From a virus (lineage: Duplodnaviria > Heunggongvirae > Uroviricota > Caudoviricetes), in IMG/VR virus record IMGVR_UViG_2512047041_000008: a stretch of 56,009 nucleotides of DNA; one strand, 5' to 3'. Each line of letters begins with the position of its first letter. Position 1 is the stretch's first letter. Made by a program: the position numbers and the translations under genes. Of the stretch, positions 3,022-53,725 are shown piece after piece. A model generated the notes under the pieces. That model worked only from the letters and a program-made list of their open reading frames with translations. It had not been told where the DNA came from and searched no databases.

Positions 3022-3912
3022 TCAGGCTGCCAGATCATCGTTTCCGATGGAAGCATAATAAGCTTTTTCTGCTTCTGCCGGAGGAGTATGGCCCAGCCTT
3101 TCCAGCAATCGTCGATTGTTATACCAGTCCACCCACGTGAGTGTGGCCAGTTCCACTTCTGCACGGTTTTTCCAGCTCTTACGGTGTATTACCTCCGCTT
3201 TGTAAAGACCATTGATGCTCTCCGCCATCGCGTTGTCATACGAGTCGCCTGTACTTCCTGTTGATGCCAGTAATCCGGCTTCCTTAAGCCGCTGTGTGTA
3301 GGCCAGCGATACATACTGAGAACCTTTATCACTGTGATGGACCGTGCCGGACGGTCGACGGGCCCATAACGCCTGCTCCAGTGCATCCAGCACGAATGTC
3401 GTTTCCATGGACGATGAGACCCGCCACCCCACGATGTATCCGGCAAACACATCAATGATGAACGCCACATAGACGAAGCCCCGCCATGTGCTGACGTAAG
3501 TAAAATCAGCCACCCACAGCTGGTCAGGTCGTTCTGCCACGAACTGACGGTTTACGCGGTCGCCTGCGGCAACGGCTTTCCGGCTGATGGTCGTACGGAC
3601 CTTTTTACCCCGGAGAACACCGGCAAGTCCCATAACCGCCATGAGACGTGCCACAGTGCATCTGGCCACTCTGATACCTTCCCGTAACAACTGACGCCAG
3701 ACTTTACGCACACCGTATACCTTGTGATTTTCATCGTATACGCGCTGTATCTCTTTCTTCAGCCAGTCATCGCGCTGCGCACGGGCACTGCGTTTATCCG
3801 GATGATGTCGCTGTTGCTGACAGTGGTAATACGTTGACGGGGCAATATGCAGTTCGCTGCATAGCGGTCCGACCCCGTACTGCTCACGCAGCTTATCCAG
3901 CAGTGGCATCAT
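3022..3912 (-). CDS. IS629 transposase OrfB (DDE catalytic domain)
   Basis: 296 aa, DDE/rve-type; start overlaps orfA stop (ATGA). Confidence 0.85.
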
Positions 3913-4235
3913 TTTTTCCAGAGGCGGTCGAACTCCGCCTTCGCAAAATAAGCGGAAGCCTGGCGAAGGATATCGTTACTGCGGCGCAGTTCACGATTTT
4001 CACGTTCCAGCTCTTTCAGACGCTGACGTTCAGCGGTGGTGAGCCCTCCATCACCGCCCCCGGTATCCCGCTCATGCTGGCGAACCCAGACACGCAGAGT
4101 CTCCGGCGTACAGCCAATCTTTGGAGCAATGGAACAAATTGTCGCCCATTGTGAGTCATATTCGCTCTGACTTTCCAGAACCATACGGACTGCCCGTTGA
4201 CGGACTTCGGGGGAAAAACGAGTATTTTTAGTCAT
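3909..4235 (-). CDS. IS629 transposase OrfA (HTH)
   Basis: 108 aa, [19 protein letters not shown]...; IS3-family OrfA. Confidence 0.85.
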
Positions 4236-9177: not shown

Positions 9178-12100
9178 TCAGCTGATACTGATGCCTGCGG
9201 TGGCTTTCTTCATCACCACAACCAGCAAATCGCTGATACTTGCTGTGGGATACCAGTCATTTACCAGCCATGCTGACACCGAAAACTCCAGCGTCATGTG
9301 ACCGTGACCGGCAGGCATATCAATAACGCCACTGTAAATCAGCGTATTATCCAGCGCGGTACGGTTATAAATTTCAGCACCGTTTTTCCGCACTATCAGA
9401 CGGCATGAGGAGTAAATATCAGTATGCTCTCTCTCATGTTTAGCGCCGCTGAATGCCACCGCCGGAATAACAATCTGCCGGTCAAACGGCTGATCGTCAT
9501 AAATCCTGACGGTAATGGTCCCTGATGGCCACCGTTCCGGTGCACGGGAGTCCCGGGGGAAAGCTTTACCCACTGTTTTAACGAGATCGCCTTCAATCTG
9601 GTTCGCGGACAGTTTTCCCAGAACCCGGCAGTTCTCGTTAATCGTGACGTTGTTGAGCGTCCCGGAGTTCGCATTCACGTTACCGCTGATATCGGCATTT
9701 TTCGCCGTCAGCCGCCCGTCCGGTGTCAGGGAAAATGCCGGAGGATTACCGCCGCTGGTAATGGTGGGAGCCGTCAGATATTTCAGGAACACTTCGTTCA
9801 TGAATATCTGATCGCCCTGACCAACAAACATCGGCTTTGTGTTGCCATTCGCAGGATTAACCATCGCAATCCTGTCCGCCGCCAGCAGCACCTGACTCTG
9901 CATGCCGTCAGGGGTGTTCTCAATACCGGCACCAATACCCGCGATATAAAGGCGTCCGTCCTGCATCTGCTGCAGCTTCACAGCCCACATGCTGTTCAGG
10001 TTATTATTTGTATCAACCTGAACCTTCTGTATCTGCTGAATTGCCGCACTCTGGTCTTCCAGTTTCTTATTGACGGTCTGCGTGATTTCATTGCTGACAT
10101 CCGTAATGGACGTCCTGATTTCAGCCAGGTCAGGCGCAAGCTGACCGTTATCAATCTGCGTCCACAGCTCCTGAGCCAGATGGCTTTTCCCTATCTCGCC
10201 TTTGAAAAAATCCAGATAGCCGGATGCATCATCACTCGGCTGGCCAACAGCCTCCACAAATGCCGATTTGCCAACGGTGTTCACACTGCGGATGTAAAAA
10301 TAATAATCATGGCCCGGTTTGATATTGATACTGGCAGCTATCCAGTACAGCGCCGTGCCAAGATAGCGGGCTGTGGTTTCAACCTGCCTGATATCCGCAA
10401 TCCGCTTTTCCGAGAACCAGAACTCAAACTGTACCGTCGGATCATAAACGGCAAGATGGGGCGTGGCGGTTATCTGAAAATAGCCCGGCGTCAGCTCAAT
10501 CCGCGACGGCGCTGCCGGTGCGGCAATACGGAACGATACCGATGCCGGATCGCCCTGCTGCCCCCAGGCATTTGCCGCCCGGACTGTCAGCCTGTAGTTT
10601 CCCAGCGCCAGTTGCGTGAAGCGGTATGTGGTTTCCGTCGTCCGGGCCGTGCTGACCAGCCGCTCACTGCCGTCATCCGCTGCCACGGTCAGGCGAAGCA
10701 GGAAGCTCACGCCCTTCACCACCTTCGGTGTGTCCCATCGCGCCAGCACCTGATATTCCCCGCTGTCTGCAGTGACTTCTGCGGTCAGGTGCTGCACCGC
10801 TGGCGGCGTGACACCATTCACCGTGCCACTCTGTTCGCCGTCAAAGTGCGCCCCGTTATCCACGATGGCCTCTTTTTCCGGCACATGCTGCACGGCGGTG
10901 ATGGCATACGTGCCGTCGTCGTTCTCACGGATACTCACGCAGCGGAACAGTCGCTGGCGCAGCGTCGGCAGCTTCAGCCCCCATACGCTGTATTCAGCAA
11001 CACCGTCAGGAACACGGCTCACTTTTACCTTCACGCCGTCGGTGACGGACTGAACCTCCACGCTGACCGGATTGCCACTTCCGTCAACCAGGCTTATCAG
11101 CGTGGTACCGGAGGATGGCAGCGTGATTTCACGGTCGAGCGTCAGCGTCCGGGTCTGGCTGTTCACCGCCAGCACGCGACCACCGGTGCTGATACCGGCA
11201 TAGTCATCATCGCAGATTTCAATGACATCGCCCGGCACATGGCGAAGCCCTTCTGCGCCCACGCTGAAATCCACGGTCTGCGTTTCCAGCAGTTCCGTTT
11301 TAATCAGCCACAGCCCGGCGCGGTGTGCCTGCCCCCGGCTGGTACAGCCAAAGGCATCCATCTTCGTGACATTACGACCGTAACGGGCAATGGCCTGCGT
11401 ATCTTCAACAAGCTCTGTCGCCGTCTCCCAGCCGTTGTCCGGGTCAATCCAGTTCACCTCAACGGCATTATGGCGGTCCTTCAGGGCGCTGAAGCTGTAG
11501 CGGAACGGCGCGCCATCATCCGGCATCACCACATTACTGCGGTTATAGGTCCACACCTTATCCGACTGTCGGTCCTGCACGAACGTCAGCGTCTGCCCGT
11601 TCCATACCGGCATACAGCGCATCGCCGAGCAGAAATCACTGAGCACATCCCACGCCTTGCGCTGTGTGGTCAGGTACGCATTACAGGTGATGCGCGGCTC
11701 CGTGCCGCCAAAGCCGTCCGGCACTGACTGGTCGCAGTACTGGCCGATGACATACAGCGCCCATTTGTCCACATCCGCCGCACCAAGACGTTTCCCCATG
11801 CCGTAGCGCGGGTGGGTCAGCATATCCCACAGACACCAGGCCATGTTGTTGCTGTATACTGGTTTTAACGTTCCGTCCCAGATACCGCTGTATTGTCGCG
11901 TCTGCGGGTTATAGTTCGACGGCACCTGCAGAATGCGCCCGCGAAGATGATAATTACGGCTCACCTGCTGGCTGCCGAACTGCTCCGAGTCCACCTGTAC
12001 GCCGACCAGTGCCGTGTTCGGGTAGCACTGTTTCACATCGATGATCTCGGTGTATGACGACCAGAGCGTTTTGTTCTGCAGCTGGTCTGTGGTGCTGTCC

Positions 12101-12657
12101 GGCGTCATCCTGCGCATCCGGATATTGAACGGGCGCGGCGGCAGGTTATCCACCACCACCGAGGCCAGATACTGCGAGGTGGTTTTGCCCTTAATGGTGA
12201 TGTCTTTTTCCGTCACCCAGCCACCGTTACGCTGTATCTGAACCAGCAGGCGGACTTCCGACGGATTCCTGTCTCCCTTTGAGGTGGTTTCCACCAGTGC
12301 CTGTACACCGAAGGTAAAGCGCAGACGGTCGATGTTTGCCGACGTGATGGTCCGGGTGATCGGCGTTTCATATTTCACTTCCGTACCGAGCACCGTCTCG
12401 GAACCGGAGGATTCAAATCCCTCCGGCGGTGACTGCTCCTGCTCACCTGCCCGGAACACCACCGTGACGCCGGAGATATTGGTATTCCCCTCACTGTCCA
12501 GCACCGGCGTACTGTTCAGCAGCACGCTTTTTAATCCATCCACCGGACCTTCAATCGGCCCTTCGCTGATGGCATCAATCGCACTCAACAGCTGCGTGGA
12601 TTTCAGGTTATCTTTCGCTTCGCGCGGGGTATGCCCCTTACTGCTGCCTGTACCCAT
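9178..12657 (-). CDS. J: Tail tip / host specificity protein J
   Basis: 1159 aa; position and size as lambda J (1132 aa). Confidence 0.9.
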
Positions 12658-12717
12658 TCGTCATGCTCCATAAACGACAAAACCGCCCGGAGGCGGTTTC
12701 ACATAAAACATTTTGCA

Positions 12718-13389
12718 TCAGCGACCAATCACCACAACCTGACCACCGTCCCCTTCGTCTGCCGTGCTGATCTCCTGAGAAACCACCCGCGACCCCACAC
12801 GCATTTCACCGTACAGAACAGGCAGAACATTGCCCTGAGCAACCATGTTATCCAGTGAGGAAAAATAGGTGTTCTGTTTGCCGTTATCCGTTGTCTGTGT
12901 ACGGGGAGTTCTGGCTTTCGGTGCCAGCATCTGCGCCACACCACCGAGCACCATACTGGCACCGAGAGAAAACAGGATGCCGGTCATACCACCGGCCCCA
13001 ATGGCTGCCCCCCATGCTGCAAGGGTGGCTCCGGCAGTAAAGAATGATCCGGCAATGGCGGCAGCTCCCAGGACAATCTGGAATACACCACCTGACTTGG
13101 CCCCGGCGACTCTGGGAACAATATGAATCACAGCGCCATCAGGCAGAGTCTCATGTAACTGCGCCGTTAATCCGGACGTGCTGACGTCCCGCCCGGCAAT
13201 CCGTACCTGATACCAGCCGTCGCTCAGTTTCTGACGAAACGCCGGGAGCTGTGTGGCCAGTGCGCGGATGGCTTCAGCCCCCGTTTTCACACGAAGGTCG
13301 ATGCGGCGGCCAAATCGTTGCAAATCCCCGTAAAGGCAGATGCGTGCCATTCCCGGTGACGCCAGAGGGAGTGTGTGCGTCGCTGCCAT
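12718..13389 (-). CDS. I: Tail assembly protein I
   Basis: 223 aa, same length and position as lambda I. Confidence 0.85.
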   Translation of the reverse strand: MAATHTLPLASPGMARICLYGDLQRFGRRIDLRVKTGAEAIRALATQLPAFRQKLSDGWYQVRIAGRDVSTSGLTAQLHETLPDGAVIHIVPRVAGAKSGGVFQIVLGAAAIAGSFFTAGATLAAWGAAIGAGGMTGILFSLGASMVLGGVAQMLAPKARTPRTQTTDNGKQNTYFSSLDNMVAQGNVLPVLYGEMRVGSRVVSQEISTADEGDGGQVVVIGR

Positions 13390-20564: not shown

Positions 20565-21905
<1,341 letters not shown>

Positions 21906-21913
21906 CCACTACA

Positions 21914-22260
21914 ACAGCCTCATCCCGCGTGGCGTGAAGTGCATCAGTATGCAGCGTCACCAGTGCCACAACCGTGACCAGATCAGCCGTATCAGTCACG
22001 GTATCCGGCTGCGCTGATACAACCTCATTTTCATGTCCGGTCAGCACATTTTCCGGGCTGAGAGGGGTCTCCTGACCGGCAGTGTCGCCCGTGTCATCAA
22101 GCTCTTCTTCCAGCTCTGCCACACGGAGCGCCAGTTCTTCTTTCGTCCCCGTCAGGCTGATATCACGGTTCAGTTGTTCACCCAGCGAGCGGAGACGGGC
22201 AATCAGTTCATCTTTCGTCATGGACTCCTCCACAGAGAAACAATGGCCCCGAAGGGCCAT
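21914..22260 (-). pseudogene. FI: FI N-terminal portion (DNA-packaging accessory protein), truncated by IS insertion
   Basis: MTKDELIARLRSLGEQLNR... matches recalled lambda FI; frame runs into the IS end after ...HATRDEA. Confidence 0.8.
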
Positions 22261-25017: not shown

Positions 25018-28698
<3,681 letters not shown>

Positions 28699-28724
<26 letters not shown>

Positions 28725-29244
28725 TCAGCAACCCCGGTATCAGTTCATCCAGCGCGGCTGCTTTGTTCATGGCTTTGATGATATCCCGTTTCAGGAAATC
28801 AACATGTCGGTTTTCCAGTTCCGGAAAACGCCGCTGCACCGACAGGGGGATCCCGTCGAGAATACTGGCAATTTCACCTGCGATCCGCGACAGCACGAAA
28901 GTACAGAATGCGGTTTCCACCACTTCAGCGGAGTCTCTGGCATTTTTCAGCTCCTGTGCGTCGGCCTGTGCACGCGTAAGTCGGTGGCGTTCGTACTCAA
29001 TAGTCCCTGGCTGGAGATCTGTCTCGCTGGCCTGCCGCAGTTCTTCAACTTCCCGGCGCAGCTTTTCGTTCTCAATTTCAGCATCCCTTTCGGCATACCA
29101 TTTTATAACGGCGGCAGAGTCATAAAGCACCTCATTACCCTTGCCACCGCCTCGCAGAACGGGCATTCCCTGTTCCTGCCAGTTCTGAATGGTACGGATA
29201 CTCGCACCGAAAATGTCAGCCAGCTGCTTTTTGTTGACTTCCAT
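28699..29244 (-). CDS. Nu1: Terminase small subunit Nu1
   Basis: 181 aa, MEVNKKQLADIFGAS... as lambda Nu1. Confidence 0.9.
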
Positions 29245-29421
29245 TGTTCATTCCACGGCCAAAAACAGAGAAAGGAAACGACAGAGGCCCAAAAGTTCGT
29301 TTTCAGCACCTGTCGTTTCCTTTCTTTTCAGGGGGTATTTTAAATAAAAACATTAAGTTACGACGAAGAAGAACGGAAACGCCTTAAACCGGAAAATTTT
29401 CATAAATAGCGAAAACCCGCG

Positions 29422-29433
29422 AGGTCGCCGCCC
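29422..29433 (-). other. cos cohesive-end site (cosN 12-nt overhang GGGCGGCGACCT on the minus strand)
   Basis: Flanks on both sides match the lambda left and right genome ends as I recall them. Confidence 0.8.
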
Positions 29434-29632
29434 CGTAACCTGTCGGATCACCGGAAAGGACCCGTAAAGTGATAATGATTATCATCTACATATCACAACG
29501 TGCGTGGAGGCCATCAAACCACGTCAAATAATCAATTATGACGCAGGTATCGTATTAATTGATCTGCATCAACTTAACGTAAAAACAACTTCAGACAATA
29601 CAAATCAGCGACACTGAATACGGGGCAACCTC

Positions 29633-29866
29633 ATGTCAACGAAGAACAGAACCCGCAGAACAACAACCCGCAACATCCGCTTTCCTAACCAAATGATTGA
29701 ACAAATTAACATCGCTCTTGAGCAAAAAGGGTCCGGGAATTTCTCAGCCTGGGTCATTGAAGCCTGCCGCCGGAGACTGTGCTCAGAAAAAAGAGTTTCT
29801 TCTGAAGCAAACAAAGAAAAGAGTGACATTACTGAATTGCTCAGAAAACAGGTCAGACCAGATTGA
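29633..29866 (+). CDS. Hypothetical basic protein (YnfO-like), adjacent to cos
   Basis: 77-aa ORF; an equivalent ORF exists at the lambda right end. Confidence 0.5.
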   Translation: MSTKNRTRRTTTRNIRFPNQMIEQINIALEQKGSGNFSAWVIEACRRRLCSEKRVSSEANKEKSDITELLRKQVRPD

Positions 29867-29908
29867 AGCAATTTAGATAATCGTGCAGACTACGCCCCCT
29901 CATATCAC

Positions 29909-31163: not shown

Positions 31164-32589
31164 TAATGCCAGTCAGTTAAGCAACTGACTGGCTCTTTTT
31201 CGGGGCTGTGGGGTATTTCCAGGGCCTCTCCTTTACCACTCTCGGGAAGGCCCTTTCCCTTCTTGTCGGTAATTTCACAAGTTGTCCCATACTTGCAAGA
31301 TCGCGCATCAGCTCCGGTATACGTCCCGGTGAAGCGCCCTGCAATGTCATCAGCATTCTCATCACCATTCCACATGATTCTGAGAAACTCAGTTGATTCG
31401 GCCAGTAACCTTTCAGATGTTCTGCCATTTTAATCATCTGATATCTCACCAGATTATAAGCCAGTAAGACACCCCACAGCTCTTGCTCCACAAGCTCCGG
31501 TTTTTTACTTCTCAGCGTCAGCCTGCTCAGTTGCATCGTCTGTTTTATCTCCCTGTATCCCAGTTCGATTTCCCAGCGATGACTGTACAGATCCGCCATT
31601 TCTCCTCCGGGGAAGCGCATGGCGTCCGTCATCGACGTCAGCAGATGGCAGACTTTTCCTTTGCGCGTCACGGTCAGCAGGCGGGCTGTCACTTCATTTC
31701 CCAGTCCCGGCCACTTTTTTCGTGCCTGCGGGCTGGTTTTCAGCTTCACCAGATGATCGCCTTTACCCAGTTTTCTGATCTCTTCATATTGCGCTCCCTT
31801 TCTGAGAGGTATCATCCAGTGGCGGTGTTCTCCCGCCAGGCTCCAGGCATTTAACAGTCCCAGTGAGTAATAACCTTTATCCATTAACGTCAGAGTGTTA
31901 TCGCCGGTTTGTTCTATAAGTTGCTCAGCAAGCTCATTTTCGCTGTTCTTCATCGTGCCGAAGGCTGCAGCCGTCAGCAGATGGCTGGTCAGTTCCATCT
32001 GGCAGACCATTTTGACCTGCGGGTAGAGCGCCGGGTTCCCGGCATGTGTCTGGCGGGGGAAGGCTGCATCGTTCTCTGGTGTATCCGGTGTGCGCCAGAA
32101 CACACCATCGATGGCCAGCAGGGTCAGGCCGCACCAGTGCGGATGCGGCGTGGCGTTATGCCAGAGCTGCGCTGTTTTCGTGAACACGCGGCGGACAGCC
32201 TCACTTCCCAGGCGCTGGCGGGCCTGAATAACGGCACTGGGGGCAACGAAGGGGCGATTGCCCGGCAGCATGATGTCCAGGCGATTCACAATCTGGTGAA
32301 GAGGTTCTTTACGCTCAAGCGCCATGCCAACAATACACCAGACCATCATTTCGAGGGGAAGACGGCGCTTGCGTAGCGTTACAGTACCTGATTCGGCAAG
32401 GCAACGAGAGATGAGTTCGGGGTCGAGGTAATCCCCCAGAGAAGTCAGTGGGTTACGCAGAGAATCGTAACGGGATACCAGATCAAGAGCCTGTCCAATG
32501 TGCATAAAAAAATCCGGAAACAAGTGAGCGTTTCCGGATTCTTACACAGCCACTGGATCGGTCAACTGATCCTTAACTGATCGGCATTA
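31164..32589 (-). mobile_element. IS4, 1426 bp, flanked by 13-bp target-site duplication CGACAGACGGCTG
   Basis: Terminal repeats TAATGCC(A/G)(G/A)TCAGTTAAG; identical 13-mers at 31151-31163 and 32590-32602. Confidence 0.9.
31177..32523 (-). CDS. IS4 transposase
   Basis: 448-aa ORF matching recalled IS4 transposase (probable true start MHIGQALDL, 442 aa). Confidence 0.9.
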
Positions 32590-32770
32590 CGACAGACGGC
32601 TGGCATTTAAGTATTGTGAAATATTATCAAATGTAATCATCATTGATTTACAAAAGATACATTTTGCCCCGAAAGGATTCATGTCAGAAACATCAAAAGA
32701 TGATGTTCTATACTGGGAACCATGACAACACGGGCATCTAAAGTGAATATGGTTTGTAATATTGTCTACC

Positions 32771-32983
32771 TCAAAGCGCCACTACATGAACAGCGGCAGG
32801 ACCTTTAGGTCCGTTCTCAATACCAAATTCAACTTCCTGATTCTCAGTTAATGTTTTGAAATCGTTGCTCTGAATTGCTGAGAAATGGACAAACACATCT
32901 TTGCTGCCATCTTTCGGCGTGATGAAACCAAAACCTTTTTCAGGGTTAAACCATTTCACTAAACCAGTCATTTTGTTAGACAT
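32771..32983 (-). CDS. cspI: Cold-shock protein CspI-like
   Basis: 70 aa; RNP motifs KGFGFI and VFVHF. Confidence 0.85.
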
Positions 32984-33345
32984 AATTATTACCTTTTGAA
33001 GAAATTAGCCCTTGGGCAGAATGGTCCGAAAAAAAATATCAGAGAGAAAAACCAACAAGGAAATCTCAAGAGGTACAAATAATAAAATTATAACAATGAC
33101 TGCTTCAGATAAATTTGTAACAAACCAGAACACCATTAACGCATGATTAACCACCCATAGCAAGGATTACTTTTGTAAAGAAAAACACAGCAATGAAAGA
33201 ATAGCTTTATTTATTAATAAAACGTGTCATTCTGATTAAGACCTTTTATCTTACCCTTAAGATTTCAGGAATTTTGGCTCATGGAAGAGTCCTTTTTATT
33301 TAAATTTTACATTCCGCGATGTAAATGTTCCGATTTAATATTACC

Positions 33346-34369
<1,024 letters not shown>

Positions 34370-34373
<4 letters not shown>

Positions 34374-34681
34374 AGATATTTATGATGAGGACGCTCGTGC
34401 TTATTGGCAGGATTTTCAATCTTAAAGGAGTACTGATGCTGCAGATAAGACTCAACTTTTTCTGACAATTTTTCTGCTACTTCCAGGAAGACTTGCCGGA
34501 CGCTCCTTCTGGCTGCTGCCTCATAAAACTCCAGCGCAGCTCCTTCAACACGGTCCATGGCGACATCCAGGTCAAAAATTTCACCGTCAAAGCGTTCTTT
34601 GTCCTGTAAGGCTACAGTTACCGTAACTTTATTCTCAAAATTACGGACTCCTTTCACAACCAGTTCATAGTCTTGAGTCAT
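34370..34681 (-). CDS. ydfR: YdfR-like protein
   Basis: 103 aa, between holin and lysozyme as in Qin. Confidence 0.7.
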
Positions 34682-34685
34682 TGGA

Positions 34686-34901
34686 TTACTCTCCTCTCGC
34701 AGCCTTACGCCTGTCTTCTTTAATCTTGAAATAAAGATTTGTCAGATACGTCAGCAGGCCAAAAACCAGGCTACCCAGCACACCGATTGCAGCCCACTGT
34801 GACGGAGTTACTTTATCGAGTAACTGCAATGCCCAGAAACCAGCATTACCCGCCGATGTGCCATAGGCAACACCTGTTGTTAACTTATCCATTGATTTCA
34901 T
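34686..34901 (-). CDS. essQ: Holin
   Basis: ORF 34686..34976; probable start MKSMDKL (ATG at 34899-34901), 71 aa with TM segments. Confidence 0.75.
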
Positions 34902-35069
34902 ATCCTCACCCCGATGTACACGGATGGTGCAATATGTTTGAAAAGATCGGAGTCTACGGGGTAGTTTTGACAGCACACGTTGTTCTCAACGGCGCTAAAA
35001 AAACATACACATTAAAAATGTGGGTAATTATTTTGAAAGAAAGTCATATATAAAATAATAATACGAGAA

Positions 35070-35291
35070 ATGTTTTCATATTTAGTGTACTGTATACGGC
35101 CATTTATACAGGAAAAGCCTATGTCAGAACGTAAAAACTCAAAATCACGCCGTAATTATCTCGTTAAATGTTCCTGCCCAAACTGCACCCAAGAGTCAGA
35201 ACACAGTTTTTCAAGAGTACAAAAAGGTGCCCTTTTGATCTGCCCTCATTGCAACAAAGTATTCCAGACAAATCTTAAAGCTGTAGCCTGA
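35070..35291 (+). CDS. Hypothetical small zinc-ribbon protein
   Basis: CxxC...CxxC (CPNC, CPHC); likely start MSERKNSKS. Confidence 0.4.
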   Translation: MFSYLVYCIRPFIQEKPMSERKNSKSRRNYLVKCSCPNCTQESEHSFSRVQKGALLICPHCNKVFQTNLKAVA

Positions 35292-35654
35292 TTGATTTTA
35301 TTAGTAACAAGTATTTTTTATATTTTAATAATATATTTAAAGCAGATAATAAAAAACCCGCCTGAGCGGGTTTGAGATTGTGGTGCTTTTTGTGGGAGTC
35401 ATCCACTTACGCACTTTGTTTTGCCATGCCAGCAGTTAGCTTCTGCTGTAAAACTATTCATGCAGCAAACCTGCACTTCACCACAATGGTTAGCATACTT
35501 TTCCTGATTAAGATTTTGCCAAATATGCTAGCCATTGTTTCATGTATTGGACCTCCTTACTTTTTATTAAAGAGATCCAATATTCACTACTCTGTCCGTA
35601 TCTCTACTCAGGCATCAGCCTTCTTCGTTATCGTATACAGACGAGCGATGAATT

Positions 35655-35870
35655 TTAATCAGTAATGATGACATTTGCTGCTGCAGGACCTTTAGCACCA
35701 CTCTCTATAGAGAAGGTAACCTTTTGACCTTCAAATAAGGTTCGATAATTATCATTCTGAATCGCAGAAAAATGCACAAACACATCTTTACTACCATCAA
35801 CAGGAGAAATAAAGCCGAAACCTTTATCAGCGTTAAACCATTTTACTAAACCAGTCATTTTATTTGACAT
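35655..35870 (-). CDS. cspB: Cold-shock protein CspB-like
   Basis: 71 aa with CspA-family RNP motifs. Confidence 0.85.
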
Positions 35871-36170
35871 TCTACATTCCTTAACTTGAGCCTTTCGGCA
35901 TAAATGGTTTGCATAACAGAAACGACTTCGTACTTAATTGGAGAGACTCAAAGAAGGAATAAGTGAATAACACCTGAAATGAGAACTGCTTTAGTAAACT
36001 ACTTCGTATATCGTCTGTTCTTCAAACCGACGCAATCATTAACGCATAGTTGAACATATGAAGCAATGTTTATTTTAGACATCCAGCCATCTTCAACCCC
36101 ATCAAAAAACTATAGCTTTCTTCAGGAACGTGTGTATAGTGCGCCAAGTTATCAGTATTAAGGAATTTTT

Positions 36171-36383
36171 TTGTCCCGTAAAATGACAGGAATTGTCAAA
36201 ACCTTTGACGGCAAAAGCGGCAAGGGTCTTATCACCCCATCCGATGGTCGTATCGATGTCCAGCTTCATGTTTCAGCGCTCAATCTCCGCGATGCAGAAG
36301 AAATTACCACCGGATTACGCGTGGAATTTTGCCGGATAAATGGTCTGCGTGGCCCTTCAGCTGCCAATGTTTACCTTTCATGA
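36171..36383 (+). CDS. cspF: Cold-shock protein CspF-like
   Basis: 70 aa, [13 protein letters not shown]... Confidence 0.85.
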
Positions 36384-36804
36384 GCTATATTAAAGCTTTA
36401 ATTTCAGGCCCCATCGGATCACACATGGAGAGTTTTTATGAATAACCCCGTCTGTCTTGATGACTGGTTGATTGGCTTTAAAAGCTTATGCTGTACTTTG
36501 GCCGTAATAGCTCTGCTAATAATATAATAAGCAGACTCATTGTGTTTAGGGACATTGTACTGGAAGAAAACATTTTAAACATCAGGCAAATAACCAAGTC
36601 ACCAGCTAAATAATAAGTTAACAGACATGAGTCCCGGGATGAGATTCAACATTACCATTGCCCCATTTAAAGCACAAAACCCGCTCATCAGCGGGTTTTC
36701 TACTTTTTCTTAACGTCGGGTATACAAAGCCCATCGTTGAAAAAATTTTATCCATATTTTTTGAAAAATGCAAACATCATGTCGCCATCTTCAGCAAAAA
36801 TCAT

Positions 36805-39502
<2,698 letters not shown>

Positions 39503-39545
39503 TGAGGTGTACTGGCAATAGCGGACACAACCATTTGTTCTTTTT

Positions 39546-40364
39546 TTAAGCAGCCATCTGATGATATTTTTCCCTGAAGGCTGCCGGGGAGATATTCCCC
39601 AGACGAGAGTGACGACGCTGACGATTGTAGAAAATCTCAATGTATTCCCGTATTACTGAGATGGCTTCATCCCGGTTATTAAAACGATAGTGGCTCAGGC
39701 TCTCATTTTTCAGCGTTCCCCAGAAGCTTTCCATCGGAGCGTTGTCGTAACAGTTACCTTTACGCGACATTGATGTTTTCAGACCAAACTGCTCCTGTAT
39801 GACCCGGTAATCGTATGCGCAGTACTGTGAACCTCGATCAGAGTGGTGGATTAGCCCGGCAGGTGGGCGCTGGCTCCTGAGCGCCATAAACAGGGCTTTA
39901 CCTGTCAGCTCTTTTGTCATGCGCTCTCCCATGGCGTAGCCGACAATTTCGCACGTATAAACATCTTTGATGCCAGCGAGGTACAACCATCCCTCCTGTG
40001 TGGCAACATACGTCAGGTCCGCCACCCAGACCTGATTTGGTGCTGTAGGAGTGAACGTCTGGTTCAGCAGATTTGGCGCAACTGGCAGATTGTGGTTCGG
40101 GTTCGTAGTCGCTCTGAACTTGCGTTTCTGCTTACAGCGTAGCCTTAGCTCCTTACGAAGACGTGCCAGTCGGTCACGACCAACGATGATGCCATTCTCT
40201 GCCAGCTCCGTCTGGAGCCGCCGGGTTCCATATGTTTCGCGAGTGCGGATATGTGCCACCTTAATCTCCAGTTTTAGCCGCTCATCACTTTGTTTTCTGT
40301 CTGAGGGTTCATGCTGTACCCAGTTGTAATAACCGCTCCTGGATACACCAAATACCTGACACAT
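39546..40364 (-). CDS. IS600 transposase OrfB
   Basis: 272 aa DDE. Confidence 0.85.
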   Translation of the reverse strand: MCQVFGVSRSGYYNWVQHEPSDRKQSDERLKLEIKVAHIRTRETYGTRRLQTELAENGIIVGRDRLARLRKELRLRCKQKRKFRATTNPNHNLPVAPNLLNQTFTPTAPNQVWVADLTYVATQEGWLYLAGIKDVYTCEIVGYAMGERMTKELTGKALFMALRSQRPPAGLIHHSDRGSQYCAYDYRVIQEQFGLKTSMSRKGNCYDNAPMESFWGTLKNESLSHYRFNNRDEAISVIREYIEIFYNRQRRHSRLGNISPAAFREKYHQMAA

Positions 40365-40399
40365 CGCTTCAATGGGAAATTGTTGTCGCCATTGTTCGA

Positions 40400-40702
40400 T
40401 TAACGCGTATTTTTCAGCGACTCCTGTGCAAAATACGCTGTTGCTTTTTTTAATATATCTCGCTCAAGGCGAGCTTCATTTAACGCCTTACGCAGTTGCA
40501 GAATTTCAGATTCCAGTTCAGCCACCGTGCGGGAACCAGGAGTACCGAGCCCTTTTCTGGCGGCGGTAACCCATTGTCCTAAAGTGCCTTCAGGAAGAGA
40601 TAATCGGGAAGCGCCTTCGCTGATCGAAAGTTGATTTTCAAGAACCGTTCTGACAGCTTCGGCTTTGAACTCTTTAGAGTAACGTTGGTTTTTTCTGCTC
40701 AT
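40400..40702 (-). CDS. IS600 transposase OrfA
   Basis: 100 aa HTH, MSRKNQRYSKEFK... Confidence 0.85.
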   Translation of the reverse strand: MSRKNQRYSKEFKAEAVRTVLENQLSISEGASRLSLPEGTLGQWVTAARKGLGTPGSRTVAELESEILQLRKALNEARLERDILKKATAYFAQESLKNTR

Positions 40703-40766
40703 TATTAGCTCCTTCTGATGCCATTCTATTTCAGGAAGGAGTGTCCGTTAAACTCAGGCTACCTCA

Positions 40767-44323: not shown

Positions 44324-45214
44324 TCAGGCTGCCAGATCATCGTTTCCGATGGAAGCATAATAAGCTTTTTCTGCTTCTGCCGGAGGAGTATGGCCCAGCC
44401 TTTCCAGCAATCGTCGATTGTTATACCAGTCCACCCACGTGAGTGTGGCCAGTTCCACTTCTGCACGGTTTTTCCAGCTCTTACGGTGTATTACCTCCGC
44501 TTTGTAAAGACCATTGATGCTCTCCGCCATCGCGTTGTCATACGAGTCGCCTGTACTTCCTGTTGATGCCAGTAATCCGGCTTCCTTAAGCCGCTGTGTG
44601 TAGGCCAGCGATACATACTGAGAACCTTTATCACTGTGATGGACCGTGCCGGACGGTCGACGGGCCCATAACGCCTGCTCCAGTGCATCCAGCACGAATG
44701 TCGTTTCCATGGACGATGAGACCCGCCACCCCACGATGTATCCGGCAAACACATCAATGATGAACGCCACATAGACGAAGCCCCGCCATGTGCTGACGTA
44801 AGTAAAATCAGCCACCCACAGCTGGTCAGGTCGTTCTGCCACGAACTGACGGTTTACGCGGTCGCCTGCGGCAACGGCTTTCCGGCTGATGGTCGTACGG
44901 ACCTTTTTACCCCGGAGAACACCGGCAAGTCCCATAACCGCCATGAGACGTGCCACAGTGCATCTGGCCACTCTGATACCTTCCCGTAACAACTGACGCC
45001 AGACTTTACGCACACCGTATACCTTGTGATTTTCATCGTATACGCGCTGTATCTCTTTCTTCAGCCAGTCATCGCGCTGCGCACGGGCACTGCGTTTATC
45101 CGGATGATGTCGCTGTTGCTGACAGTGGTAATACGTTGACGGGGCAATATGCAGTTCGCTGCATAGCGGTCCGACCCCGTACTGCTCACGCAGCTTATCC
45201 AGCAGTGGCATCAT
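44324..45214 (-). CDS. IS629 transposase OrfB
   Basis: Identical to the copy 1 OrfB. Confidence 0.85.
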
Positions 45215-45537
45215 TTTTTCCAGAGGCGGTCGAACTCCGCCTTCGCAAAATAAGCGGAAGCCTGGCGAAGGATATCGTTACTGCGGCGCAGTTCACGATT
45301 TTCACGTTCCAGCTCTTTCAGACGCTGACGTTCAGCGGTGGTGAGCCCTCCATCACCGCCCCCGGTATCCCGCTCATGCTGGCGAACCCAGACACGCAGA
45401 GTCTCCGGCGTACAGCCAATCTTTGGAGCAATGGAACAAATTGTCGCCCATTGTGAGTCATATTCGCTCTGACTTTCCAGAACCATACGGACTGCCCGTT
45501 GACGGACTTCGGGGGAAAAACGAGTATTTTTAGTCAT
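45211..45537 (-). CDS. IS629 transposase OrfA
   Basis: Identical to the copy 1 OrfA. Confidence 0.85.
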
Positions 45538-47389: not shown

Positions 47390-48610
47390 GTCAGCTTTAG
47401 GTTTAACATAGTATTTTGAGCGTAAATCAATACGGGCATTATCCACTCGTTCATGGACACTCTTTTCATCATCCAGTGGTATAGGCTCCGGGCCATCAAC
47501 ATACTTTTCCCAGCCCAGCGCTTTCCCGTCATACAGAACGTTAATTTCACCGTCAAAGTTCTCGCATACAGTAACAACCGAATGCCTAAGTCGATATCCC
47601 CGACCCTCACTGCGTACCTGAAACGCACTGCTTTTGTACTGGAAAGTGAGATTTTTAGACAGAACGCGCTTCGCCTGTAGGCTGAAGATATAACCCAGTT
47701 CCTCTTCAGAATGGTGCACATCAAGATGAGCATTATCAGTAGTACGAGGCGACGTAGCGAACCGGTTGTTATAGGCTTCAATAAAGGTCGGCAACCATGC
47801 ATTTGCTGTTTCAATATCACTGATATTCTGAAGCCGCATTTCTTTGACCAGCCTGTCCTGTAGTGTCTGATTGGCGCGCTCTACCCGCCCTTTTGCCTGC
47901 GGGCTGTTGGCATGGATTGGCTCGATGCCCAGTGTCTTTATCGCACGAGTGAACTGGGTCAGCTCACCTTCCCGCTCTGGGTTATTTACCCTGAATATAC
48001 TGTGTCTATCAGAGTAGAGAGCGAGCGGTACGCCATGATCATTAAGGTAACCCCGGAGGGTTTCCATGTAAGCCCGGGTTGTTTCAGCAGGCACAAAACG
48101 CAACGCCATCAACGCACTGGTGGCATCATCAATGAAAACGATCAGTGTACATCTGGGGCCTCGATTTTCAAACCAGTCATGAGGTGAGCCATCAATCTGG
48201 ATCAGTTCACCGTAAGATGGTCGTCGCATGCGGCGTTGATATATACGGGCAATTTTACGACGGCGTTCACGCCATAACCCCTCTTCTATCATCCACTTTC
48301 TGAGAGTTTCAACGGATAAAGATAAACCGTGTATCTCGCGCAATTTTTCGCACGCAAACGTAGGTCCAAAATCAGCGTAACGGCCTTTGAGGAGTGAAAT
48401 TACTGTTGCTCTGAATTCAGTAGAAAAGGAATTATTAGGACGCTTTCCACGTCGGTGGGAAACCAGACCAGAAGGCCCTTCATTTCTATACCGTTGCACC
48501 AGACGTTTAACCTGCCGAATAGAAATGCCAATGCGTGCCGCAGCTTGTTCCTGAATAATCTGAAGTCGGTGGAGTTCCTTATGACTCATCGTAACAGTCT
48601 CTTTGATCAT
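47390..48610 (-). pseudogene. DDE transposase (HTH plus rve-type core; IS481/ISNCY-like, family uncertain), 3' end truncated by IS600
   Basis: 407-aa ORF with D...D...E spacing (IQIDGS, YSDRHS, RVERAN); its stop codon is formed by the IS600 terminus. Confidence 0.65.
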
Positions 48611-48944
48611 GAAAAATCCCCCAGAGAATTGTCTGGGGACATTTTAGAATGGTTCAAAGGGGACATTACAGCTTGGTGTTAACAATAGCCTGCTTCTCCG
48701 TGCCTTTCGGCACGTAAGAGGCTAACCTACATGTGTCTAGCATGAAATTGGCCTCAGATTAATGTTAAGCGTCTTGCAGGACGCGTAATGTTAACTGGGG
48801 CTTTTCTCTATCTGCCGTTGGTGTCCATGCCCGAGGCAGATAGCCTCAAGCACCCGCAGTCATTCTACTTAACTAAGATTTCCCCGCAAACCGTTTTTGT
48901 CCAGCACAGTAAATATCCAACTAAACCAATGGAGTTCGCTGTAT

Positions 48945-52511: not shown

Positions 52512-53399
52512 TCAGGCTGCCAGATCATTGTTTCCGATGGAAGCATAATAAGCTTTTTCTGCTTCTGCCGGAGGAGTATGGCCCAGCCTTCCCAGTAATC
52601 GTCGATTGTTATACCAGTCCACCCACGTTAGTGTGGCCAGTTCCACTTCTGCACGGTTTTTCCAGCTCTTACGGTGTATTACCTCCGCTTTGTAAAGACC
52701 ATTGATGCTCTCAGCCATCGCGTTGTCATACGAGTCGCCTGTACTTCCTGTTGATGCCAGTAATCCGGCTTCTTTTAGTCGCTCCGTATAGGCCAGTGAC
52801 ACATACTGAGAGCCTTTATCGCTGTGATGGATGGTGCCAGACGGACGACGGGCCCACAACGCCTGCTCCAGCGCATCCAGCACGAATGTCGTTTCCATAG
52901 ACGATGAGACCCGCCACCCCACGATGTATCCAGCAAACACATCAATGATAAACGCCACATAGACGAAGCCCTGCCATGTGCTGACGTAAGTAAAATCAGC
53001 CACCCACAGCTGGTCAGGACGTTCTGCCACGAACTGACGGTTTACGCGGTCACCTGTGGCAACGGTTTTCCGGCTGACGGTAGTGCGGACCTTTTTACCC
53101 CGGAGAACACCGGCAAGTCCCATAACCGCCATGAGGCGCGCCACTGTACATCTGGCCACCCTGATTCCTTCCCGTAACAACTGACGCCAGACTTTACGCA
53201 CACCGTACACCTGATGATTTTCATCGTATACGCGCTGTATCTCTCTCTTCAGCCAGTCATCGCGCTGCGCACGGGTACAGCGTTTATCAGGATGATGCCG
53301 CTGCTGCTGACAGTGGTAATACGTTGACGGGGCAATATGCAGTTCACTGCATACAGGTCCGACCCCGTACTGCTCACGCAGCTTATCCAGCAGTGGCAT
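52512..53399 (-). CDS. IS629-like transposase OrfB (variant)
   Basis: 295 aa, DDE. Confidence 0.8.
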   Translation of the reverse strand: MPLLDKLREQYGVGPVCSELHIAPSTYYHCQQQRHHPDKRCTRAQRDDWLKREIQRVYDENHQVYGVRKVWRQLLREGIRVARCTVARLMAVMGLAGVLRGKKVRTTVSRKTVATGDRVNRQFVAERPDQLWVADFTYVSTWQGFVYVAFIIDVFAGYIVGWRVSSSMETTFVLDALEQALWARRPSGTIHHSDKGSQYVSLAYTERLKEAGLLASTGSTGDSYDNAMAESINGLYKAEVIHRKSWKNRAEVELATLTWVDWYNNRRLLGRLGHTPPAEAEKAYYASIGNNDLAA

Positions 53400-53725
53400 T
53401 ATTTTTTCCAGAGGCGGTCGAACTCCGCCTTCGCAAAATAAGCGGAAGCCTGGCGAAGGATATCGTTACTGCGGCGCAGTTCACGATTTTCACGTTCCAG
53501 CTCTTTCAGACGCTGACGTTCAGCGGTGGTGAGCCCACCATCACCGCCCCCGGTATCCCGCTCATGCTGGCGAACCCAGACACGCAGAGTCTCTGGCGTA
53601 CAGCCAGTCTTTGGAGCAATGGAACAAATTGCCGCCCATTGTGAGTCATATTCGTCCTGACTTTCCAGAACCATACGAACTGCCCGTTGACGGACTTCGG
53701 GGGAAAAACGTGTATTTTTAGTCAT
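53399..53725 (-). CDS. IS629-like transposase OrfA (variant)
   Basis: 108 aa, a few substitutions relative to copies 1 and 2. Confidence 0.8.

Follow-up and report, generated by a model that had tools for sequence, protein, structure and literature searches.

A lambda-type cos site in a Qin-family prophage of Escherichia coli

Does the lambda-like sequence at positions 29244-29640 of the window, by which we mean the whole stretch of 56,009 nucleotides analysed here, represent a complete packaging site (cos), which element carries it, and could that element still use it? The original prediction described the interval as a cos near-identical to that of phage lambda, with the cohesive-end 12-mer and several hundred bp on each side matching the lambda genome termini. 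Both parts are borne out by a base-by-base comparison with lambda DE3 (EU078592), in which 391 of the 397 positions in 29244-29640 are the same (98.5%). A BLAST check of 29200-29700 had also been proposed, with an identity below 85% or the absence of the 12-mer counting against a lambda cos. Megablast against 50,697 phage records aligns the reverse complement of this interval with lambda and DE3 records at 100% coverage and 98.8% identity (E=0), and the 12-mer is present. The match to lambda is far above chance.

The 12-mer GGGCGGCGACCT is found at 29422-29433 on the minus strand, and this is its sole exact copy in the 56-kb window. Hence, the left-to-right direction of lambda corresponds to falling window coordinates and the element is inverted with respect to the lambda map. 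A lambda position p converts to window position 29434-p, counted as in lambda strains without the extra G near bp 138. This additional base of the reference NC_001416, which is missing in DE3, phage 434 and the window, introduces one further 1-bp gap into the comparison with the reference. Around cosN, the window matches DE3 over a 408-bp run without a single mismatch (lambda -335 to +72). On the Nu1 side, lambda homology continues for at least 1.5 kb at 98.0% identity. On the right-end side, it stops about 360 bp past cosN, near window position 29795. Beyond about -360, lambda has p79, p78 and bor, whereas the window has the 3' end of ynfO, ydfO, gnsB and csp genes instead.

The coordinates of the cos subsites were taken from the annotated phage 434 record (OL657226) and from two published descriptions (PMC4669245, PMC4856287), and each subsite was compared with lambda (Table 1). 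All subsites and the Nu1 ribosome-binding site are the same as in lambda (joined ends of NC_001416/J02459; DE3). Order, orientation and spacing from cosQ to R1 are the same as well, and there are no indels relative to lambda DE3; thus, all spacings are kept. cosQ, which is needed for packaging termination (PMC4669245), is also kept in PhiR26_1 despite differing flanking bases. The inverted repeats R1/R2 and R2/R3 were recovered de novo from the window without lambda as a guide, and the same repeat search returns a weaker R-like match that overlaps cosQ. We take cosQ to be lambda 48473-48479, coordinates that agree with the sequence. A 238-bp lambda fragment (48446-182) is known to contain cosQ, cosN and cosB (PMC4856287), and its equivalent in the window, 29252-29490, differs only at six spacer positions. 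Judged by its sequence, the site is therefore a lambda-type cos with a complex cosB, as it comprises cosN, cosQ, R1, R2, R3, I1, I2 and a cognate Nu1. The same comparison agrees with the earlier view that the packaging site looks intact, every described subsite being base-for-base as in lambda. Within 29100-29900, no promoter-like sites were found, and the single terminator-like hairpin lies inside ynfO at a level equal to chance expectation. An Rfam scan of the whole window gave no match in the cos interval.

Table 1. Subsites of cos and neighbouring genes in the window, with lambda positions in brackets.
Feature	Window position	Strand	Remarks
cosQ heptamer GGGTCCT	29457-29463	-	Same as lambda; distance to cosN as in lambda
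cosN, 12-nt cohesive end GGGCGGCGACCT (lambda 1-12)	29422-29433	-	Aligns with the DE3 'cos site' and with bases 1-12 of phage 434 and lambda
I2, AT-rich spacer between cosN and cosB (bp 18-50)	29384-29416	-	As lambda, 73% A+T, same spacing; extent from PMC4856287
cosB R3, binding site of gpNu1 (small terminase) (bp 50-65)	29369-29384	-	As lambda; coordinates from the 434 annotation
cosB I1, IHF core AAACATTAAGTTA as read on the plus strand (bp 74-86)	29348-29360	.	As lambda and 434
cosB R2, gpNu1 site, orientation opposite to R3 and R1 (bp 108-123)	29311-29326	+	As lambda
cosB R1, accessory gpNu1 site (bp 151-166)	29268-29283	-	As lambda; coordinates from the 434 record
Nu1 ribosome-binding site (lambda 180-182)	29252-29254	-	As lambda
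408-bp block 100% identical to lambda (-335 to +72)	29362-29769	-	Spans cosQ, cosN, I2, R3 and the 5' part of ynfO
Nu1 (annotated nohA), terminase small subunit	28699-29244	-	Intact 181-aa ORF
Gene A, terminase large subunit (nuclease and ATPase)	26799-28724	-	Intact 641-aa ORF
ynfO (YlcI/YnfO family)	29633-29866	+	ORF; transcribed away from cos; bounds the cos interval on the right
gpFI split by IS3-family element	20565-22221	-	C-terminal fragment 20565-20654, transposase 20728-21905, N-terminal fragment 21904-22221
Late antiterminator Q split by IS100	36805-40702	-	Q fragments 36805-37053 and 38990-39553; istAB 37142-38943; IS600 39546-40702

The six substitutions relative to lambda fall at bp 73, 102, 134, 138, 144 and 175 (window 29361, 29332, 29300, 29296, 29290 and 29259), all of them in spacers between subsites. 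Each is the allele of the viable phage 434 and likewise of PhiR26_1. Phage 434 is viable and a classical member of the lambda cohesive-end group. Its cos (OL657226) has the subsite layout of the window and carries the window allele at all six positions that differ from lambda; four other differences separate it from the window in the first 204 bp (98.0% identity), one of which lies inside the annotated R3. PhiR26_1, PhiR34_1 and PhiR49_1 are closer, with one base in 204 unlike the window. A literature search on the viability of PhiR26_1-type phages found no paper, and the viability argument therefore rests on phage 434. As a caveat, the A-to-G change at bp 73 lies one base outside, and thus directly beside, the IHF core of I1, a change common to phage 434, and the changes in the spacer between R2 and R1 are known from 434 and not from lambda itself.

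Based on these alleles, the cos of the window reads as a lambda-identical right end joined to a 434/PhiR-type cosB spacer, a kind of mosaic that is common in lambdoid phages. Similarity changes sharply beside cos: the block without mismatch is followed by six mismatches in 103 bp (29259-29361), all of the 434 type. At a background divergence of about 2%, the chance of a perfect run of 408 bp is roughly 3 in 10,000. Because such a run is unlikely to arise by chance, the sequence hints at recombination in the past, with a junction between R3 and I1, which would fit the clustering beside cos reported in PMC3945230.

As is normal for a prophage, the site has the lysis/moron region on one side and the terminase genes on the other. 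Both terminase subunits are 99% identical to those of lambda: Nu1 shares 179 of its 181 residues and gpA 637 of 641. Residues 1-74 of Nu1 are unchanged, which include the DNA-binding domain and the specificity residues 20 and 24 (PMC4669245). Thus, the packaging specificity of the encoded enzyme should be that of lambda. On the other side of cos, the gene ynfO has a homologue in lambda itself. The complementary strand of NC_001416 (about 48112-48303) contains a 64-aa ORF of the YlcI/YnfO family that reads away from cos and whose first 49 residues are the same as in YnfO of the window. This ORF is unannotated in NC_001416, and the PhiR26_1 record has an ORF annotated at the corresponding position.

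Next to the question of the site stands that of its carrier. The whole window (1-56009) is one Qin-type lambdoid prophage that is inserted in ydfJ and fuller than Qin of K-12. Its cargo was annotated from 100% identical DNA in the genomes of IAI39 and N32 and from 99.8-99.9% identical DNA in other genomes. Positions 1-23000 are 100% identical to E. coli N32, and according to the annotation of N32 the left part holds a truncated ydfJ, ynfT, ydfK, an IS-interrupted pinQ-type recombinase and tail-fibre remnants. These are followed by a complete lambda-like tail module up to J, the split gpFI, and E, D, C, B, W, A and Nu1. To the right of cos lie ynfO, ydfO, gnsB, ynfN, cspI, rzpQ, rrrQ, ydfR, a holin gene, cspB, cspF and then the split Q; past Q there are ydfU, ydfV, flxA, relE-type genes, the early region and an intact integrase ORF at the window end. 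The insertion in ydfJ, with ynfT-ydfK-pinQ at the tail-fibre end, involves the same genes that flank Qin in K-12, and the cargo from ynfO to ydfR, together with cspB, cspF, ydfU, ydfV, flxA and relE, agrees with K-12 as well.

The comparison with K-12 Qin also indicates how far the element has decayed. Both prophages have the same neighbours (rrrQ-rzpQ-cspI-ynfN-gnsB-ydfO-ynfO-cos-nohA) and occupy the same site, with ydfJ', ynfT, ydfK and pinQ at one end, and the K-12 Qin cos, located between ynfO and nohA, is 99.2% identical to the window over the 239-bp core. In the K-12 annotation, nohA is directly followed by a tail-fibre remnant, tfaQ and pinQ, and the head and tail genes are absent. In contrast, the window retains full-length Nu1 and A, the head genes and the tail module, and it carries other IS insertions. 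The element looks like an intermediate stage of Qin decay.

That the prophage is defective in Q and FI, as the original prediction held, is confirmed, with FI split by an IS3-family element and Q by IS100 with IS600 abutting. The former was read from the N32 RefSeq annotation of DNA 100% identical to window 1-23000 and the latter from the IAI39 and N32 annotation of DNA 100% identical to window 32589-40766. The IS load amounts to three IS629-like copies, the IS3-family element in FI, IS4, IS100, IS600 and an ISNCY fragment. From ydfJ' to int, the prophage measures at least about 54.7 kb by estimated boundaries, attR lying outside the window. The capacity of the lambda head is about 51 kb, which the IS-loaded prophage, going by these estimated boundaries, probably exceeds.

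No single genome of the collection matches the window over its full length. N32 is 100% identical to 1-23000 and, leaving aside the IS4 of the window, to 20000-40766, and then runs into tehB and not into the early region of the prophage. IAI39 covers the centre and the right of the window at 98.8-100% identity and has neither the tail module nor the IS4. Its prophage contains two inverted IS629/IS3 copies, each invaded by a group II intron (ltrA; locus coordinates 9717-13206 and 35752-39235), and the head-gene end abuts cvrA-ldcA-emtA and not the tail genes and ydfJ. This arrangement suggests a large chromosomal inversion or rearrangement in IAI39 with an endpoint inside the prophage. The window, unlike IAI39, has no group II intron and no junction with cvrA-ldcA-emtA. 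Its own IS629-like repeats are potential substrates for rearrangement within the prophage.

The cos itself is widespread. The 1.7-kb cos junction is 100% identical in the complete genomes IAI39, EFF60 and N32 and is matched over at least 80% of its length in 2408 genomes. The 239-bp core has a match in 4592 of 5426 complete E. coli genomes (3967 of them over at least 80% of its length), and the median copy number per genome is two. Therefore, such sites are routine in the E. coli prophage pool.

What could this cos still do? In all likelihood, it is the complete but recently stranded cos of a lambdoid prophage, of lambda specificity and probably cleavable, and would be used only with a lambda-specificity terminase supplied in trans. 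Following the lambda literature (PMC4669245, PMC4856287), IHF would bend the DNA at I1, gpNu1 dimers would occupy R3 and R2 on either side of this bend and R1 would play an accessory role, and gpA would thereby be placed to make staggered nicks 12 nt apart in cosN. The DNA would then be translocated into the prohead from the cosB end, that is from 29422 through Nu1 and A towards lower coordinates, and the next cosQ and cosN would terminate the packaging run. For this cos to act, the terminase would have to come from a superinfecting or co-resident lambdoid phage. Cleavage in trans would be expected to leave a double-strand break, which would stimulate both recombination and marker rescue with the phage that supplied the enzyme; packaging may also start abortively and run into the tail genes and ydfJ. 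The prophage itself presumably cannot use the site autonomously, because IS100 and IS600 have destroyed Q, an IS interrupts FI and the prophage is probably oversize. The intact late genes might nevertheless be expressed by read-through or if a compatible Q were supplied in trans.

De Paepe et al. (2014, PMC3945230) showed that lambda recombines with the defective prophage DLP12 preferentially beside cos and that viable hybrids result. The cos/nohD region of DLP12 in K-12 resembles the window in that a lambda-like cos, flanked by homology to the lysis and terminase genes, is left stranded in a prophage that is defective. However, DLP12 is another prophage at another locus, and the recombination experiment used neither a Qin-type element nor this strain. 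By analogy, recombination with an infecting lambda beside cos appears to be the most plausible present-day activity of the window cos. A literature search on Qin-specific cos function returned nothing directly relevant.

Helper phages might have a more far-reaching effect on the element. Given a compatible Q or terminase, another lambdoid phage resident in the same cell might trans-activate it, cut the chromosomal cos and package unidirectionally via the tail genes into ydfJ, ydfI and beyond. This is conceivable since cos, the terminase and nearly all head and tail modules are intact and IS damage is confined to Q, FI and accessory genes, but we consider it unlikely. In cos phages, a particle is completed only when a second cos in the right orientation lies 38-51 kb downstream. 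With one mismatch tolerated, no second cos able to end a packaging run was found in the window, which offers 29 kb downstream of the site. If trans-activation did take place, the stranded cos would serve as a constant starting point from which a helper could mobilise or rescue genes of the Qin region, much as in the pool of defective prophages reported for O157 (PMC2669165). Full self-sufficiency, in which a working cos serves an inducible prophage that still makes infectious particles, is highly improbable. In 100% identical DNA, cos, the ORFs of Nu1, A, W, B, C/Nu3, D and E and the tail module from Z to J are annotated as intact; the integrase ORF is intact as well. Against this stand the disruption of Q, which is essential for lambdoid late transcription, by IS100 with IS600 at its flank and the splitting of FI by the IS3-family element. 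Moreover, at least eight IS copies or fragments bring the prophage to a length that probably exceeds what lambda can package, truncations affect the exonuclease and tail-fibre genes, and xis is frameshifted in the related IAI39 locus.

Two further explanations concern the origin of the site, and we give hardly any weight to either. One would make the element satellite-like, keeping a helper-compatible cos in order to hijack helper capsids in the manner of PICI-type elements. E. coli phage-inducible chromosomal islands indeed carry cos (PMC9026076, PMC6739421) and rely on the terminase of a lambda-like helper, and the element of the window would likewise be packageable only with help. Yet, it has its own full-length lambda-type terminase together with head and tail genes, the Qin gene order and the Qin site in ydfJ; its helper dependence stems from IS damage and not from design, and it is far oversize for a satellite. 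Furthermore, cosB and Nu1 are lambda's own and exhibit no redirected specificity. The other would attribute the identity to assembly contamination by lambda vector, cosmid or spike-in DNA, a thought prompted by 408 bp without mismatch to laboratory lambda and by the frequency of lambda DNA as a laboratory contaminant. This explanation was rejected: the block is continuous with non-lambda or diverged flanks, namely the ynfO 3' end and ydfO on one side and the 434-type cosB spacer and head genes at 98% identity on the other, and the same junction is shared by the independent complete genomes named above, with at least 80% of its length found in 2408 genomes.

In terms of significance, the site is an ordinary lambda-type cos in a Qin-family prophage, already known and not novel. 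Its importance beyond annotation is small: the cos subsites of the window are placed at base resolution, and the element is identified as a less-decayed relative of the K-12 cryptic prophage Qin in which the head and tail modules are still present. The cos also marks a place where the chromosome could be cut by a foreign terminase of lambda specificity, which would favour recombination with incoming lambdoid phages.

The prophage has several further features. The IS4 copy (31164-32588, transposase ORF 31177-32523) is inserted just past ynfR, where it falls in the 3' end of ymcF/ynfQ, a small cold-shock gene; it has an apparent target duplication of about 14 bp and is missing in the otherwise identical IAI39 and N32 loci. 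Among the Rfam matches in the window, the Hfq-binding sRNA isrC gives a strong one (145 bits, 20724-20846) at the border of the IS3-family insertion in gpFI. ALIL frameshift pseudoknots at 3838-3954, 45140-45256 and 53328-53444 mark the three IS629-like IS3-family copies. Leaders of the cspA-type thermoregulator are located at 32744-33129 and 35639-36031, upstream of the prophage cold-shock genes cspI and cspB, and a sok antitoxin RNA is found at 48684-48855 in the relBE/hok region.
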